NCBI GenBank assembly: GCA_964465205.1
Contig: CAYXJO010000007.1
Span: 5,228 to 69,227, forward strand
Length of the DNA: 64,000 bases
From: an uncultured Gammaproteobacteria bacterium
GTDB taxonomy: Bacteria > Patescibacteriota > Patescibacteriia > Magasanikbacterales > GWA2-37-8
Direction of reading: 5' to 3'
Under the pieces are notes generated by a model. It worked only from the letters and a program-made list of their open reading frames with translations, was not told the DNA's origin and did not search any database. The stretch's first letter is position 1. Every line of letters begins with the position of its first letter. Shown in pieces: positions 16,711-42,606 of the stretch. The translations under genes and the position numbers were made by a program.

Positions 16711-17024
16711 GATCCGTGCTCCTTTGCGGTATGTTCCCATTCGGGTCACCGCATGATTGATCTGTCAGCTAACTTGGTTTGTAACGAGCATGGCTTTTTA
16801 TGGCCAAAATTAGATTTTTGTGAAAAAGTCCAATTTTTGCCTTAAAAAGCAGAAAACTCCCAGATTGAAGAGAGTCTTTAAATATTTTTGGCTAAAATAA
16901 GCCTAATTTGTGGTTGTGCATAATGCTCTCTCTTCATTATTTACAACTGATTATTATAGCACATTTTTGCCCTTTTGTCAAGAGGATGATATAATATGGA
17001 TGTTTTTAGAAAAAAATTAAAACT

Positions 17025-35100: not shown

Positions 35101-35339
35101 TTTGCTGTGGAGTGGGGGTATAAAAATGTATTCATTCTCTTTTTTTGTTGGGCGAAGAGTGTGCGAATGTAAATCCGATCGGAAGTAATCATACCGTATC
35201 TTTTTGTTGACAAAATCTGTAATAAGTAGTTTATTATATACTCAAGCGCTCTTTACAAAGCAATATCCGTGAGCGCGAGAAACTGACAGGTGTCGGTTTT
35301 TTGTTTCATGGGTATTTAAAATCAAACAGGAGGTGGGCC

Positions 35340-36731
35340 GTGACTAAATTGAAAGAAGAATGTGCGGTATACGGTGTATGCGGTTATCATAATGCGGTCA
35401 ATCCTGTGGTTGAAGGACTGTATTCTCTGCAACATCGCGGGCAAGAAGGGAGCGGAATCGCAGTGGTGGCTCCAGATAGCCAATTGATCGTGGTGAAAAA
35501 GCCCGGGTTGGTGAGCGACTCTTACGGAGAATTAGAACGCCGGAAGTTGGCTGGTAAGGTGGCCATTGGCCACACCCGCTATTCGACTGCCGGCGGCTTG
35601 TCGCTTCTCAACCCCCACCCCTTTGTGGTGAACAACCCGCCCTTGGCCGGTTGTTGGAATGGCAACATTCCGCGCCCCACCTATGATTACTGGCGAGATT
35701 ACCTCAAAGATAAGTGGTGCGATTTCGACACCGAGAACGACGGCGAGTTGTTGGTGCGCCTGTTGGCACACCGACTGTACTCTGGCGACGACATGGTCGC
35801 CGCCGTGCGTTGGCTGTTCCAAAACGTGACTGGTGCTTACTCCGGTCTACTGCTCCATGACGGCAAAATGTACGCCGTACGCGACCCGCTCGGTTACCGG
35901 CCGTTGGTCTTTGGTGACCGCGGCAAATCTTGGGTGGTCTCTTCAGAGACGGTCGGGCTCGACATTATCAAAGCCCGGCATCACCAAGAAGTGCAACCCG
36001 GCGAACTCGTGGAATTCGCGGTTGGGCAAAAGCCGATACACTACCAATTGGCCCAGAGCGACCTGCGTCGATTCTGCATCTTCGAATTGATCTATTTCGC
36101 TCGGCCCGATTCGGTCGTGTTCAACATTCCGGTGGGGCATGGCTTTCGTCGTGCACTCGGTAAACGCATGTACCATCAGTACGGATGCGATCTGGATATC
36201 GACGTGGTCATCCCGGTGCCAGACTCGGCCAACGATTTTGCACTCGGCTATCACGAGGCCTCGGGAGTACCGCTCGGCTTTGGTCTGCGTCGCAACCATT
36301 ATGTCGGACGTACCTTCATCGAGCCCAAGAAAAAACGCGCGCCCAAAGTGCGCCGCAAGCTCAACCCAGATCGCGCCGTGATCGCTGGTAAACGCGTGCT
36401 GATTATTGACGATTCGATCGTTCGTAGTACCACGATGCTCAAAATCGTGCGCATGCTACGTCGCAACGGTGCCAAAGAGGTGCATGTGCTTATCGGTTCG
36501 CCGCTAATCACTCATTCGTGTTATTTTGGTGTCGATACACCAGATCGCGATGAATTGGTGGCGGCTCAAAATGATGTCGATGGCATCCGTCGTCTGATCG
36601 AGGCGGATACGTTGCAATATGTCACCATTCAAGATTTACGCAGTACCGTGCTTGATTTGGGTGCAAAGCCTGATCATTTCTGCGGTGCGTGCTTTAGCGG
36701 CGACTACCATCCGACGCCGGTTCCAGGCTAA
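35340..36731 (+). CDS. purF: Amidophosphoribosyltransferase (glutamine PRPP amidotransferase)
   Basis: Ntn Cys in EECAVYGVCG after a short propeptide, then LQHRGQEGSGIAV, and the PRTase motif VLIIDDSIVRSTT. GTG at 35340 has AGGAGG 6 nt upstream. The listed ATG 35301 is in frame as an alternative. Confidence 0.8.
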   Translation: MTKLKEECAVYGVCGYHNAVNPVVEGLYSLQHRGQEGSGIAVVAPDSQLIVVKKPGLVSDSYGELERRKLAGKVAIGHTRYSTAGGLSLLNPHPFVVNNPPLAGCWNGNIPRPTYDYWRDYLKDKWCDFDTENDGELLVRLLAHRLYSGDDMVAAVRWLFQNVTGAYSGLLLHDGKMYAVRDPLGYRPLVFGDRGKSWVVSSETVGLDIIKARHHQEVQPGELVEFAVGQKPIHYQLAQSDLRRFCIFELIYFARPDSVVFNIPVGHGFRRALGKRMYHQYGCDLDIDVVIPVPDSANDFALGYHEASGVPLGFGLRRNHYVGRTFIEPKKKRAPKVRRKLNPDRAVIAGKRVLIIDDSIVRSTTMLKIVRMLRRNGAKEVHVLIGSPLITHSCYFGVDTPDRDELVAAQNDVDGIRRLIEADTLQYVTIQDLRSTVLDLGAKPDHFCGACFSGDYHPTPVPG

Positions 36732-36757
36732 ACCACCCGTTAGATAAGGAGTAAAAC

Positions 36758-36795
36758 TCTCCCGGCAGGCGTTCGCGCTTGCCGGATTTTTTAAA
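36758..36795 (+). terminator. Intrinsic terminator after purF (ccggcaggcg ttcg cgcttgccgg then T-run)
   Basis: 10-bp stem with one G-U pair, followed by attttttaaaattt. Confidence 0.55.
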
Positions 36796-36902
36796 ATTTG
36801 ACGCCATTTTTTTCGTTTGATATAATCCCAGACGATAAGTCGGGCTTAGATTGTTCCAGTTTTATAAACTAAACCCGCGTCCTATTTTTCAACTATTTTT
36901 TT

Positions 36903-37400
36903 ATGAAAGAAAAACAGCTTAATAGAATCATGCGTTTGGTGCGCAATACCGGTGATCGATTAGTGATTTTGGATCGCGAGTCAGACGAAACCATGGTAAT
37001 GATGAATCTGGATGAATATGAAAATTTGTTAGAAGGCGGATGTGATTGTGGCTGTGATGATGGCAATGACGATTGGGGGCGAGAAGATGATGAGGTTGAA
37101 ATTAACAATGATTGGGTAGAGCATGAAGAAAAGATTAATCATCCAGATGCTTCGTTAGATGACTCTATTTCTGCACCAGATGCAGAAATAGATCTGCCAA
37201 CAGATTATGCAGAGCCGGACGTTCCACCGGCGGAAGAACCAACCATATCGCCGTTGCCAGACACAATTATAAAATCCGAAGTAAGACCGTTGCGTTCTGG
37301 TAGTATGGACAGTATTGGGGCTATTTTAAACGAAGAACCTTTGAGCGATGTGCCCCATGAAGAAGCCGAAGAGCCATTTCTCCTCGAACCGGTGGAATAA
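36903..37400 (+). CDS. Acidic hypothetical protein with Phd/YefM-antitoxin-like N-terminal segment and a long D/E-rich tail
   Basis: RLVRNTGDRLVILDRESDETMVMMNLDEYENLLE resembles the YefM/Phd fold start. CDCGCDDGNDDWGREDDE and an acidic tail follow. No toxin partner is adjacent. Confidence 0.4.
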   Translation: MKEKQLNRIMRLVRNTGDRLVILDRESDETMVMMNLDEYENLLEGGCDCGCDDGNDDWGREDDEVEINNDWVEHEEKINHPDASLDDSISAPDAEIDLPTDYAEPDVPPAEEPTISPLPDTIIKSEVRPLRSGSMDSIGAILNEEPLSDVPHEEAEEPFLLEPVE

Positions 37401-37419
37401 TCCACAATCTATCCCCAAA

Positions 37420-37455
37420 GCCGCCCTTGACAAATCGGGCGGTTTTGTTATAATA
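37420..37455 (+). promoter_or_regulatory. Terminator hairpin (gccgccc...gggcgg then T-run) with an embedded consensus promoter (TTGACA - 16 nt - TATAAT) for tuf
   Basis: aaagccgcccTTGACAaatcgggcggttttgtTATAATaatc. The -35 element lies in the hairpin loop. Confidence 0.55.
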
Positions 37456-37582
37456 ATCACGCTGTCAAAAGCAAAATTTTTGTTTAATACAAAGATCGGT
37501 CATTTTTGGTCGATCAAAATTACGCGGCTGGACAACAAATCTTGCCCGACCACTCGGGGAAGTGCCGTGAACATTTAACACT

Positions 37583-38773
37583 ATGGCTGAGTTTCAACGA
37601 ACAAAGCCCCATGTTAATGTAGGTACCATTGGTCACGTCGATCATGGTAAAACAACATTGACTGCTGCAATTTTGCAGACTTTGAACGCCCGTGGTGGCG
37701 TCGCCCAGAAAAAGGGTGTAGATGATTTGGATAAAGCTCCTGAGTCCAAGGCGCGTGGTATTACTATTTCCACCGCTCACGTGGAGTACGAGACTGACGG
37801 TCGCCATTATGCGCACGTCGATTGTCCCGGTCATGCCGATTATGTAAAAAACATGATCACTGGTGCTGCTCAGATGGATGGCGCTATCTTGGTTGTTTCT
37901 GCCGCTGATGGCCCAATGCCGCAGACTCGCGAACACATCGTGCTCGCTCGTCAGGTGGGCGTGCCTTATATCGTGGTATTTTTGAACAAAGTTGATCAAG
38001 TTTCCGATCCGGAGCTTGTAGACTTGGTAGAATCCGAAGTACGCGATTTGCTCAAAAAATATAAATTCCCTGGTGATACTACCCCGATTATCCGTGGTAG
38101 CGCTTTGCAAGCTTTGCAAAACCCGACCGATGAAGCGGCCACCAAACCGATCATGGAACTCCTCAAAACTTTGGATGAATATATTCCTCAGCCAGAGCGT
38201 GCAGTGGACAAGCCGTTCCTCATGCCGGTGGAAGATGTGTTCTCTATTGAGGGCCGTGGTACCGTAGTAACTGGTCGTATTGAACGTGGTATGATCAAAC
38301 TCAACGACGAAGTTGAAATCGTCGGTTTGAAAGAAGATGTTCAAAAGACCGTAGTAACCGGTATTGAAATGTTCAACAAATCTCTCAAAGAAGGTCAAGC
38401 TGGTGATAACGCCGGTCTCTTGCTTCGTGGTACCAAAAAGGAAGATGTGGAACGTGGTATGGTTTTGGCCAAACCGGGTTCTATTACTCCTCACACCGAA
38501 TACGAAGCTAATGTGTATATCTTGACCAAAGAAGAGGGTGGTCGTCATAAACCGTTTTTCGCTGGTTATAAACCGCAGTTTTATATTCGTACCACCGATG
38601 TTACTGGTGAAGTGACTTTGCCGGCCGGCACCGAAATGGTTATGCCTGGCGACACTGTCAATATCACTATCAAACTCATCGCTCCGGTTGCCTTGGAAGA
38701 CAAGATGAACTTCGCTATTCGCGAAGGTGGCCGCACCGTTGGTGCTGGTGTAGTAACTAAAATTATTAAATAA
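37583..38773 (+). CDS. tuf: Elongation factor Tu
   Basis: [25 protein letters not shown], 396 aa. The antisense ORF 37520..39082 is a shadow. Confidence 0.97.
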
Positions 38774-38783
38774 ACGGATAAGT

Positions 38784-38815
38784 AGAGACGCCCCGAGTAG
38801 GGGCGTCTCTACTGC
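38784..38815 (+). other. Strong stem-loop (gtagagacgcccc gagt aggggcgtctctac) between tuf and rpsJ
   Basis: Perfect 13-bp stem with a 4-nt loop. Only a weak U-tract follows. Probably an attenuator or stabiliser rather than a full terminator. Confidence 0.5.
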
Positions 38816-38839
38816 TTCCGGGTTCCTTTGTGTTCCTTT

Positions 38840-39181
38840 ATGACTAATGCAAATCAACAACCAAAAAAAGAAGAAGGAGTAAATCGTATTCGCATCAAAA
38901 TTCGCGCTTACGATAATCGTATCATTGATCAGGCCGCCAAGACTATTATTGAAACTGCCGAGCGCAATGATGCCAAAGTAATTGGTCCAGTACCGCTTCC
39001 GACCGAGAAAACCAAATTCACCGTGAATCGTTCTACGTTTATTCACAAGAATGCTCGCGAACAATTCGAAATGCGCGTGCATAAACGTTTGATTGATATT
39101 ATGGGTGCGACTCCGAAATGTGTCGACGCTCTTATGAGTTTGAATTTGCCGGCTGGTGTGGATATTGAGATCAAAATGTAA
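38840..39181 (+). CDS. rpsJ: 30S ribosomal protein S10
   Basis: [72 protein letters not shown]. Start trimmed to MTNANQQ. Confidence 0.9.
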
Positions 39182-39245
39182 GTAGGTAATTTTTAGCTGA
39201 TTTTAGCTAAAAAAAGGTTGTCTAGGTATATGGCCTGGGCACTCC

Positions 39246-39281
39246 TTGACAAAGTTTAAGTTTTGTGCTAATATTAGCACA
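39246..39281 (+). promoter_or_regulatory. Consensus promoter (TTGACA - 17 nt - TAATAT) whose -10 is embedded in a perfect 18-bp palindrome tgtgctaat|attagcaca (39264-39281), a putative operator
   Basis: ccTTGACAaagtttaagttttgtgcTAATATtagcaca. The palindrome has 9-bp half-sites, a typical repressor operator geometry, inside the unusually long rpsJ-rplC spacer. Confidence 0.55.
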
Positions 39282-39443
39282 AGTTTTGCCATTGATTTTC
39301 GGGTAAATAAGATCTAGTTAGAAAACATTTACGAGAAAGCAAAATGGCATTGGGAGAAAAATATTGAAAATACATAAAAACAAAGCCTATTAAATCCGAT
39401 TTTTCGGATTGTGTCTGCGCATCCATTGGATGTGTGGAAGAGG

Positions 39444-39494
39444 CTAGAAGCGAGAATGACGAGAAACCTCGGTATTTTCACTTCTAGTTTTTTG
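39444..39494 (+). promoter_or_regulatory. Leader attenuator / terminator-like hairpin (ctagaag...cttctag then TTTTTTG) in the about 260-nt leader upstream of rplC
   Basis: 7 to 8-bp stem closing a 28-nt structured loop, followed by a U-run. Further hairpins are nearby (aatccgattttttcggatt, ctccgtt...aacggag). Analogous to the L4-controlled S10 leader. Confidence 0.45.
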
Positions 39495-39561
39495 TTAAAT
39501 AATTTTTAATTCGTTATCTCCGTTTACTTTTGGGATGGGAACGGAGCAATGACAAATTTAT

Positions 39562-40266
39562 ATGAAGTTTATTCTAGGACAAAAACTCGGCATGACCCAG
39601 GTGTTCATGGCGGATGGCACAGTGGTGCCAGTGACACGCGTACAGGCTGGACCTTGCGCTATCGTACAAATTAAGGACGGGACCAAAGATAATGCCAAAG
39701 CAATTCAGGTTGGTTTTGGCGATATCCGCGAATTTCGTTTAAATAAACCGCAAACCGGCCATTTGAAAGATCTGTCTCCGGTGCGTTGGTTGCGCGATTT
39801 TTCTGTAGAAACTACTGAAAATCTTGATCGCGGCGACTTAATTACAGTCGATACATTTGCCAATGGTGATGTAGTAGAGGTGATTGGCGTGAGCAAGGGC
39901 AAGGGTTTTGCCGGTGTGGTAAAACGTCATCATTTTCGTGGTGGTCCTGCTTCTCACGGTCATAAAGACAATTTGCGTGCCCCAGGTTCTATTGGCGCCG
40001 GTGGCGTTCAGCGCGTATTCAAAGGTATGCGCATGGCCGGACGTATGGGCGGTGATCAGGTGACTGTAAAAAATTTGAAAATTGTTGAAGTTCATCCGGA
40101 AACCAACGAGATTTATGTGAAAGGTGCCGTGCCGGGCGCTCGCAATGGTATGCTCATGATAATCGGTAATGGTGAATTAAAAATCCAAAAAAAGAATATC
40201 AAAAAGGAAGAGCCTGTGGTCGAGGCCGCTCCGGTAGAAACTAAAACCGAAGAGGCTGCCGCTTAA
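39562..40266 (+). CDS. rplC: 50S ribosomal protein L3
   Basis: MKFILGQKLGMTQVF..., with Gly-rich loop GGPASHGHKDNLRAPGSIGAGG. 234 aa. Confidence 0.93.
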   Translation: MKFILGQKLGMTQVFMADGTVVPVTRVQAGPCAIVQIKDGTKDNAKAIQVGFGDIREFRLNKPQTGHLKDLSPVRWLRDFSVETTENLDRGDLITVDTFANGDVVEVIGVSKGKGFAGVVKRHHFRGGPASHGHKDNLRAPGSIGAGGVQRVFKGMRMAGRMGGDQVTVKNLKIVEVHPETNEIYVKGAVPGARNGMLMIIGNGELKIQKKNIKKEEPVVEAAPVETKTEEAAA

Positions 40267-40924: not shown

Positions 40925-41413
40925 TTGAAACATATGGGAATATTAGATCGCTGGACAAAAAAGAATGAGCAAGAAAAATTGAAGGATTTGGACAAGAGAA
41001 GTGACAAACCGGTCAAATCTACTAAAGTTACCAAATCTACCAAGAAAACTACAGCCGCTTCGGTTACGGAAAAATCTGCTGAAAAAACTGTGACCACTTC
41101 GGTAGCAAAAAAAGCAGTAAAACCAGAAGGTATTGCTTATAAAATTTTGATTCGTCCTTTGGTTACCGAAAAATCCGCAGTAATGGAAAGTTATAATAAA
41201 TATAGTTTTATCGTGAGCCGTGGTGCTACTAAAGATCAGGTGAAACAGGCGGTTGCCGAGGCTTATGGTGTTCGTCCGACTACGGTCAACATGATCAATG
41301 TAGATGGTAAAAATGTGCGTTTCGGTCGTGGTTATGGTCGTCGTAGTGACTACAAAAAGGCCATTATTACTTTGGCATCCGGTCAAACGATCGCTATTCA
41401 CGAAGGTGTTTAA
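40925..41413 (+). CDS. rplW: 50S ribosomal protein L23 with about 65-aa Lys-rich N-terminal extension
   Basis: Core YKILIRPLVTEKSAVMESYNKYSFIVSRGATKDQVKQAVAEAYGVRPTTVNMI matches L23. The N-terminal extension is K/T/S-rich. Confidence 0.85.
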   Translation: MKHMGILDRWTKKNEQEKLKDLDKRSDKPVKSTKVTKSTKKTTAASVTEKSAEKTVTTSVAKKAVKPEGIAYKILIRPLVTEKSAVMESYNKYSFIVSRGATKDQVKQAVAEAYGVRPTTVNMINVDGKNVRFGRGYGRRSDYKKAIITLASGQTIAIHEGV

Positions 41414-42282: not shown

Positions 42283-42606
42283 ATGTCCAGAAGCTTAAAA
42301 AAAGGACCTTATCTCGACCCGCGCGTACTCGCTAAAGTTGCCAAAGTGAAAACTTCCGGCAAACGCGAGAATATTAAAACTTGGTCACGCGCCTGTGTAA
42401 TCGCGCCAGAAATGGTAGGTTTGACTTTTGCTGTGCACAATGGCAAAGAGTTCTTGAATGTATTCGTAGAAGAAAATATGGTCGGACATCGTTTGGGTGA
42501 GTTTGCTCCTACCAAGAAATTTATTGTTCACGGTGGTAAGATGGCCAAAGAACAAGAGGCCGCTGCTGCTGCCAAAGCTGCTGCTCCGGCTGCTGCCAAA
42601 AAATAA
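42283..42606 (+). CDS. rpsS: 30S ribosomal protein S19 with Ala/Lys-rich C-terminal tail
   Basis: [16 protein letters not shown]...[30 protein letters not shown]. Confidence 0.93.

Follow-up and report, generated by a model that had tools for sequence, protein, structure and literature searches.

Why, in a bacterium of the Magasanikbacterales, should 380 nucleotides (nt) separate rpsJ from rplC? The gap occupies positions 39182-39561 of the stretch of DNA analysed here (64,000 nt of contig CAYXJO010000007.1, assembly GCA_964465205.1, hereafter the window). It lies between the gene for ribosomal protein S10 (rpsJ, 38840-39181, + strand; Pfam Ribosomal_S10, E = 1.7e-34) and that for L3 (rplC, 39562-40266, + strand, by Pfam), which heads a long rplC-rplD-rplW-rplB-... 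cluster. An earlier sequence-only reading had remarked on the gap and described in it a textbook promoter, a palindrome over the -10 element, a leader with several hairpins and a terminator-like stem. All of these elements are present where they had been placed, and each exceeds chance expectation. Judged by sequence comparison, the spacer is best read as carrying a new ribosomal-protein-operon leader or attenuator that falls outside every described family.

Relatives were collected by a search with the L3 protein, which yielded 160 loci, half of them from species-representative genomes and half from metagenomes. The named loci belong mostly to Candidatus Magasanikbacteria or to the 'Patescibacteria group', many bins being labelled generically or evidently wrongly, and the metagenome contigs have no taxon label. 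The identity of their L3 proteins to that of the window ranges from 55 to 84%, the N-terminus MKFILGxK being kept in all loci, and an exact-sequence look-up of the window's L3 returned no record. In 79 genome loci the rpsJ-rplC spacer has a median length of 374 nt (range 167-792), and it is likewise long in 64 metagenome loci. A long spacer is thus found in every locus where both genes were identified, which makes the 'broken' S10 operon characteristic of the lineage, not peculiar to the window genome. We rejected a coding function for the spacer, because it holds no + strand open reading frame (ORF) of at least 40 amino acids (aa), except one that overlaps the rplC start in another frame, and because insertions among relatives in two of its hairpin regions (P3 and P4, described below) are not multiples of three.

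The predicted transcript of the spacer is strongly structured, as had been proposed, and runs for about 215 nt to the terminator. The segment 39280-39561 folds at -85.1 kcal/mol, as against -56.2 +/- 4.2 kcal/mol for shuffled sequences (z = -6.9). The 5' domain of this leader, delimited by folding, covariation and a covariance-model match, is a single long hairpin at 39287-39349 (+ strand). It comprises the helices P1 (39287-93/39343-49), P1b (39296-300/39335-39) and P2 (39303-08/39327-32), an invariant 4x4 internal loop in which AAGA (39309-12) faces AAAC (39323-26), and the P3 tip (39313-22). Single-sequence folds of about 100 distinct leaders gave the same order P1-P1b-P2-loop-P3, with invariant A-U and U-A pairs flanking the loop and a P3 tip that varies from 8 to 80 nt. 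Four near-invariant motifs occur at regular spacing among the 80 spacers, namely ATAAGAT (78) and AAAACAT (76) in the 5' domain and GGCTAGAA (69) and TTCTAGTTTTT (73) in the terminator hairpin, although the flanking L3 proteins are just 55-76% identical.

Alignment with MAFFT and RNAalifold recovered P2/P3 only within the 5' domain, as small indels displace P1; together with the terminator, double-sided changes were seen in 18 of 29 pairs. The 5' domain was then assessed by a hand-specified structure, by an alignment-free duplex test and by alignment to a covariance model. In the ungapped alignment, 76% of the cells of the P1-P3 structure are paired, compared with 37-49% when the partner strand is slid, and the covariation score is 0.50, compared with 0.20 in shuffles and reached by none of 500. 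The covariance-model alignment gave 80% paired cells vs 38-48% after sliding, and a score of 0.574 vs 0.213 that was again reached by 0/500 shuffles. In the duplex test, strands from the same leader pair at a mean of -11.0 kcal/mol and foreign strands at -6.0 kcal/mol, only 6% of dissimilar partners equalling a leader's own.

Downstream of the 5' domain lies a second module at 39384-39445 (+ strand). There, a conserved AGCC(U) at 39384-88 pairs with (A)GGCU at 39441-45 to form P4, a domain that encloses two variable hairpins (39393-39410 and 39414-39438) and folds at -27.8 kcal/mol (z = -4.7). Compensatory exchanges in P4 include UCUA/UAGA, UCUUG/CAAGA and UUUGAAC/GUUUAAA. It is followed by an intrinsic-terminator-like hairpin, GGCUAGAAGC...GCUUCUAGUU with U6 at 39488-93 (39442-39493, + strand), recognized as an inverted repeat and by folding and covariation. 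The 20-bp (base-pair) stem GGCTAGAAGC...ACTTCTAGTT at 39442-39489 folds at -27.4 kcal/mol (z = -6.2). The terminator-like stem that had been noticed before is thus real, and it is conserved and covaries; a simple terminator scan missed it, as the stem has mismatches. Throughout the core group its lowest 8 bp are invariant, while its upper part covaries (13 pairs with double-sided changes) and accepts insertions. In more distant relatives the stem persists as GGCUGGAAG/CUUCUGGUU or as GGCC(G)AGAAG/CUUCUGGCU. The hairpin and U-run expected of an intrinsic terminator are there, but the base is not G+C-rich as in efficient terminators: its lowest 8 bp read G.U, G.U, C-G, U-A, A-U, G-C, A-U, A-U, with two G-C pairs only. 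Such a weak base is compatible with a leaky, factor-assisted attenuator.

The GGCU of P4 also forms the first 4 nt of the terminator 5' arm. P4 and the base of the terminator are therefore predicted, on thermodynamic grounds, to act as a switch in which both compete for the same GGCU, in the geometry of an antiterminator and a terminator. When the terminator 3' arm is left off the transcript, the closing AGCC:GGCU of P4 is part of the minimum-free-energy structure in 74 of 90 unique leaders. Of the 90 full-length transcripts, 72 form the terminator base and 16 retain P4.

The leader is preceded by a promoter of the sigma-70 type (39246-39274, + strand), with the -35 element TTGACA at 39246-51, a 17-bp spacer, the TG of an extended -10 at 39266-67 and the -10 element TAATAT at 39269-74. 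The full string, TTGACA-17-TGcTAATAT, fits the sigma-70 pattern of TTGACA and a TATAAT-like hexamer 17 +/- 1 bp apart, here with a TG extension, and the textbook promoter of the sequence-only reading is thus confirmed. Transcription is predicted to start at about 39281-39283, from the position of the -10 element and the beginning of P1 at 39287. Of 144 orthologous spacers, 126 have the pattern TTGACA-N16-18-TAnnnT at the corresponding place with respect to the RNA; there the promoter usually begins 3-100 nt, often 3-15 nt, past the rpsJ stop codon. In the comparison of the window with its closest relative (locus L081, L3 84% identical), the promoter is 95% identical and the leader RNA 88%, but the upstream spacer 58% and the tail before rplC 62%. 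The higher identity of promoter and RNA than of the upstream spacer indicates purifying selection. Elsewhere in the window, strong promoters at 16981 (- strand) and 806 (- strand) share with the one at 39246 (+ strand) a cTTGACA and a TGTGC directly before the -10 element, a hint that the promoter consensus of the lineage includes a TRTG-type extended -10.

A covariance model of the 5' domain hairpin only (model R1) was searched against about 860 kilobases (kb), both strands. Eleven loci end too early upstream, and 150 sources were assessable. In 145 of them the model has exactly one match, on the + strand and 130-430 nt before rplC, and it has no match elsewhere in the 860 kb. The window likewise contains one match only, at 39285-39358 (64.7 bits), and pattern searches for two motif pairs found this same site only. 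A conserved, covarying leader is present in these 145 sources, and the five assessable sources without a match are of three types. In three of these (L066, L151 and L156, more distant relatives with spacers of 158-312 nt) the leader is shorter; its 5' hairpin, AAAAACCCUGACGGGUCCGG...GGAUACCCUUGGGGUGAGG, is another one, but its terminator, GGCCGAGAAGCC...GACUUCUGGCUUUUUG, is of the same kind. The 5' motif of L042 is degenerate and lies behind inserted sequence, and in L153 only the terminator is present. The terminator module may thus predate the 5' domain. Beyond the order-level lineage, the extent of the element is known from a few divergent loci only.

A strong promoter and a terminator would equally suit a free-standing small RNA gene, that is, an abundant, stable transcript of about 215 nt with an independent role, trans-acting or housekeeping, rplC being expressed by read-through. 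The near-consensus promoter and the long hairpin with its U-run do bound a discrete RNA, its invariant loops resemble those of protein-binding stable RNAs, and comparisons with E. coli ribosomal RNA (rRNA) revealed no mimicry. Nevertheless, the position directly before rplC is kept in all 145 sources, and in several genomes the RNA can only be the 5' untranslated region (UTR) of rplC. The rplC ATG lies 3 nt past the U-run in L043 and L044 and 8-20 nt past it in L074, L015, L017, L020 and L049; measured from the terminator stem, the distance is 8-30 nt in L043, L074, L015, L017 and others. This leaves no room for a second promoter between the U-run and the ATG, and the RNA must therefore form the 5' leader of the rplC messenger RNA (mRNA). 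On the + strand of the window, no consensus-like promoter follows until 50648, 11 kb downstream, which together with these short gaps makes the RNA a leader, whatever else it may be. It also matches no 6S, SRP, RNase P, tmRNA or other Rfam family, and its terminator base is weak. We thus regard a separate small RNA gene as improbable, and the element as very probably a cis-acting leader with an attenuator.

The sequence-only reading had also described a perfect 18-bp palindrome containing the -10 element, and had called it operator-like. The palindrome is present as described (TGTGCTAAT|ATTAGCACA, 39264-39281), and the inverted-repeat scan extends it to a perfect 20 bp, TTGTGCTAAT|ATTAGCACAA, at 39263-39282 across the -10 element and the discriminator. 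An 8-bp direct repeat, AAGTTTTG, at 39258-39265 and 39281-39288 flanks and overlaps it; L081 shares this repeat, which was not observed in relatives further removed. In the proposed scheme, a dimeric repressor bound to the palindrome would occlude the -10 element and control ribosomal protein synthesis at initiation, perhaps in addition to the leader. The dyad is centred on the -10 element, and among about 30 promoter-like sites of the window this is the only one crossed by a long inverted repeat (arms of 9-10 bp, compared with at most 6 elsewhere). It is identical in L081, and a reduced form, TGCTA-N4-TAGCA with arms of 5-6 bp, occurs in 13 of 102 unique promoters, where 3.9 were expected by permutation.

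However, the permutation test ignores shared ancestry, and all 13 positives belong to one subclade. About 85% of the orthologous promoters have no dyad while the promoter itself is conserved, and the full palindrome is exact in L081 only. That match says little, because at the leader's 88% identity to L081 zero changes in 20 bp are expected about one time in eight, and local identity reaches 95% in the promoter. Where one arm has changed, the other has not followed (TCTGCTA...TAGCAC, TAGCCC), and the left arm is identical to an extended -10, TGTGC-TA, that recurs at other promoters of the genome. The search for further copies, which covered the window and the collected loci and was meant to define a regulon, found none; in the 64 kb there is no second copy even with 3 mismatches (0 expected in shuffles), and the half-sites occur at chance frequency. 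The window covers the rpsL-rpsG-fusA, tuf and S10/spc-type clusters with their promoters, and yet holds this one site. Nor is a candidate regulator known. The palindrome thus turned out to be unique in the window and poorly conserved, and the leader, by contrast, to have a conserved structure. What stands of the operator proposal is a dyad that overlaps the core promoter. An operator function is possible, but only the dyad symmetry speaks for a repressor, and we consider it quite unlikely. The alignments point instead to a subclade-specific decoration of the promoter, real but local, in which an extended -10 forms the left half and the discriminator the right half.

How might the leader work? 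We propose, with somewhat better than even confidence, that the spacer is the head of a transcription unit whose leader of about 215 nt controls the rplC-rplD-rplW-rplB... cluster by transcription attenuation. In this scheme, the strong housekeeping-type promoter after rpsJ would start the leader. During RNA synthesis, AGCC would pair with GGCU to form P4, and once the 3' arm has been transcribed the terminator would capture GGCU. By analogy with other ribosomal leaders, a protein encoded in the operon and present in excess over rRNA would bind the AAGA/AAAC loop, perhaps also the invariant terminator base. Its binding would tip the switch towards termination and shut the operon off. That the effector is a ribosomal protein is about an even bet by the same analogy, and L4 specifically, a tentative suggestion, is rather less likely than not.

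Several points weigh against this scheme. The effector candidates come by analogy, L4 by precedent and L3 by position, and the transcription start, the 3' ends and the read-through are likewise predictions. The statistics for the variable part of P4 are modest (-2.4 vs -1.5 kcal/mol). With P4 formed, the remaining stem is still 2 nt from U7, and P4 may thus not abolish termination. In addition, the usual argument from rRNA mimicry, a frequent but not obligatory trait of such leaders, is missing, as far as E. coli rRNA is concerned: model R1 has no significant match in the rrn operon of E. coli (the best, at E = 4.8, falls in spacers), BLAST of the leader against E. coli rRNA returned 7-9-mers only, and no AAGA/AAAC internal loop was found at a real helix of E. 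coli 16S or 23S rRNA. Two mimicry leads were dropped, neither the covariance model nor BLAST having given anything significant. The first was AGAUAAGUGCUGAAAGCAUCU in domain VI of 23S rRNA; in E. coli 23S rRNA this region presumably pairs differently, within helix 97. The second, GGCUUAGAAGCAGCC in the GTPase-associated region, is an 11-mer match with one indel and a permuted connectivity at the site of L11, a protein not encoded in the operon.

The linker between the two modules raises a further possibility. Directly after P1, a conserved GGAG (39353-56) leads into a single-stranded, A/U-rich linker, in which an AUU is conserved 6-9 nt further on (39353-39383, + strand). GGAG or GAGG is found at this position in 92 of 111 unique leaders, and in an anchored listing of these 111 leaders the AUU is followed by a stop codon within 0-10 codons (AUU-UAA or AUU-UGA in several). 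The motif is reminiscent of a Shine-Dalgarno (SD) sequence, in a genome that does not use them: an SD-like motif is found at -20 to -4 of 1 in 64 window genes, vs 5.8% of random windows. A hairpin sequestering an rplC SD was accordingly rejected as a mechanism, the genome being without SD use and the distance between terminator and ATG varying from 8 to 176 nt.

The leader might thus sense a signal other than an operon-encoded protein, whether a metabolite, an alarmone or the translation machinery, for example free 30S subunits or IF3 through the GGAG-N6-9-AUU mini-frame. The fixed place of the mini-frame, the genome's avoidance of SD-like motifs elsewhere and the competition between an antiterminator and a terminator, as in the expression platforms of riboswitches, would all fit. 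Against such a sensor, the conserved core has the plain form of an extended hairpin interrupted by a single internal loop, as is typical of sites bound by proteins and not of metabolite aptamers; despite the platform-like competition predicted between P4 and the terminator, it is linear and matches no known riboswitch class. The element is confined to one order-level lineage and one operon, as are ribosomal leaders. The idea further presumes an AUU start codon and an anti-SD sequence in the 16S rRNA of the lineage, and the mini-frames vary in length and content. We therefore hold a sensor of this kind to be unlikely. Its most specific form is less likely still, namely that the leader measures the translation apparatus and that free 30S subunits or an IF3-dependent AUU start at GGAG-N6-9-AUU-(0-10 codons)-stop set the read-through. 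If true, it would be a ribosome-sensing attenuator over about 20 ribosomal-protein genes in a bacterium of the candidate phyla radiation. Attenuation by an operon-encoded protein remains our preferred scheme.

Like ribosomal-protein autoregulatory leaders in general, this one is a structured RNA that sits in the 5' UTR of a ribosomal protein operon and is conserved within one lineage. Nonetheless, Rfam 15 cmscan detected no leader family, whether at gathering scores over the whole window or at E <= 10 over 38700-39700, where the only matches were chance ones of the snoRNA/miRNA type. The likeness to L4-mediated attenuation put forward in the sequence-only reading is thus reasonable as a functional analogy, but not as homology, since neither the L4 leader model nor any other was matched.

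In the E. coli S10 leader, L4 acts by NusA-dependent attenuation plus translational repression (Zengel and Lindahl; summarised in PMC3616713). Like it, the window leader has several hairpins, belongs to the same operon family and precedes rplC, rplD, rplW, rplB and later genes; both have an attenuator of hairpin and U-run, an upstream hairpin that is needed for control in E. coli, and a distribution limited to a single lineage. They differ in position, as the window leader follows rpsJ and has its own promoter, whereas the E. coli leader precedes rpsJ and its last hairpin overlaps the S10 start. The E. coli hairpins HA-HE/HG have no detectable homologues in sequence or structure here, where one long AAGA/AAAC hairpin, P4 and the terminator are found instead. 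Moreover, there is no SD sequence to occlude, and a role of L4 would be by analogy.

In the B. subtilis infC-rpmI-rplT leader (L20_leader, RF00558), L20 provokes termination within a 200-nt leader by way of alternative structures (PMC1865079). The window leader shares with it a length of about 200 nt, a conserved domain that is here a putative protein-binding one, alternative antiterminator and terminator pairings and, as modelled here, control of a whole operon at transcription elongation. The operon, the protein and the RNA fold are different, and the L20 site mimics 23S rRNA, for which the comparison with E. coli rRNA gave no counterpart here. Two further leaders for comparison are candidates (Eckert and Weinberg 2020, PMC7247131). 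L4-Archaeoglobi, a candidate L4 leader, likewise lies directly before rplC-rplD-rplW-rplB, with S10 apart from the L3 operon; it is archaeal, its model does not match the window RNA, and it lacks a bacterial-type promoter and terminator architecture. L2-Alphaproteobacteria (PMC7247131), an internal leader candidate, is also a structured RNA inside the classically single S10 operon, but it differs in its position before rplB, in lineage and in structure, and it has no described consensus promoter of its own.

Two further hairpins are present in the spacer. Directly after rpsJ, at 39190-39213 (+ strand), an A/U-rich inverted repeat, UUUUUAGCU-N6-AGCUAAAAA, folds at -8.7 kcal/mol and has no U-run. 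In L081 it shows a compensatory change from AGCU/AGCU to GGCU/AGCC, though the surrounding spacer is 58% identical. This hairpin may mark the 3' end or a processing site of the tuf-rpsJ message. Between the terminator and rplC, at 39513-39553 (+ strand), an optional hairpin GUUAUCUCC...GGGAUGGGA...GGAGCAAUGAC folds at -13.6 kcal/mol (z = -3.4). Its GCAATGA/G motif is found in 21 of 103 unique tails, or in roughly 25-30 if the near variants GCAAUAAC and GCCAAUGAC are counted. The general form is GUUAUCUyy...(GGGAUGGGA)...rrAGCAAUGAC (carriers include L001, L028, L036 and L059), with stems that differ by species (CUCCG/CGGAG, CUUCC/GGAAG, CUACG/CGUAG). It is absent where rplC begins 8-30 nt past the terminator, and may be a separate operator or a stabiliser of the rplC mRNA. 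A related form, AAGCACCUC...GAGAGGCCAAUGAC, occurs in another subclade.

The gene order around the spacer, with gene identities based on Pfam and ORF listing, completes the picture of a split operon. In the window, rpsJ travels with the EF-Tu gene (tuf, 37583-38773) and is the last gene of this tuf-rpsJ unit, while the L3-headed cluster, in which L4, L23 and L2 follow (Pfam), stands apart. The tuf-rpsJ gap contains a G+C-rich perfect hairpin, GUAGAGACGCCCC...GGGGCGUCUCUAC, at 38776-38812, with no U-run after it. Upstream, fusA and tuf are separated by two genes at 35301-37460. One codes for a PurF-like amidophosphoribosyltransferase and the other for a 165-aa acidic protein with a weak Phd/YefM antitoxin-like N-terminus (E = 1.6e-4, under the Pfam cut-off). 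A near-consensus promoter precedes each of them (36798 and 37427), and the classical str operon is thus also interrupted in the window. Several proteins of the cluster downstream of the leader have lineage-specific extensions: L23 (rplW, 40925-41413, TTG start) a Lys/Thr-rich N-terminal one of about 70 aa, L3 (39562-40266) an acidic, Ala-rich C-terminal tail and S19 (rpsS, 42283-42606) an Ala/Lys-rich one.

In a full-text literature search, no paper connected structured or regulatory RNAs with Magasanikbacteria, and no described regulatory RNA of this kind was found for bacteria of the candidate phyla radiation (Patescibacteria). To our knowledge, the way in which these bacteria balance the synthesis of their ribosomal proteins has not been studied.

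Lineage-specific ribosomal leaders are common, and archaea too have S10 apart from the L3 operon. In this lineage, the classical S10 operon is split in an archaea-like manner, with rpsJ next to tuf and then a separate operon headed by L3. The most striking feature of the spacer at first sight, the perfect palindrome, proved to be the least conserved, and it is the conserved RNA that mattered. This RNA is set apart from other ribosomal leaders in that we found none described for a candidate-phyla-radiation lineage, by its exceptional definition and by its unexplained GGAG-AUU in a genome without SD use. Its architecture is unusually clear, the loop nucleotides and the terminator base being invariant, and it could enter RNA family databases. 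The retention of an SD-like element in a genome that makes no use of SD sequences may bear on translation control in such organisms.

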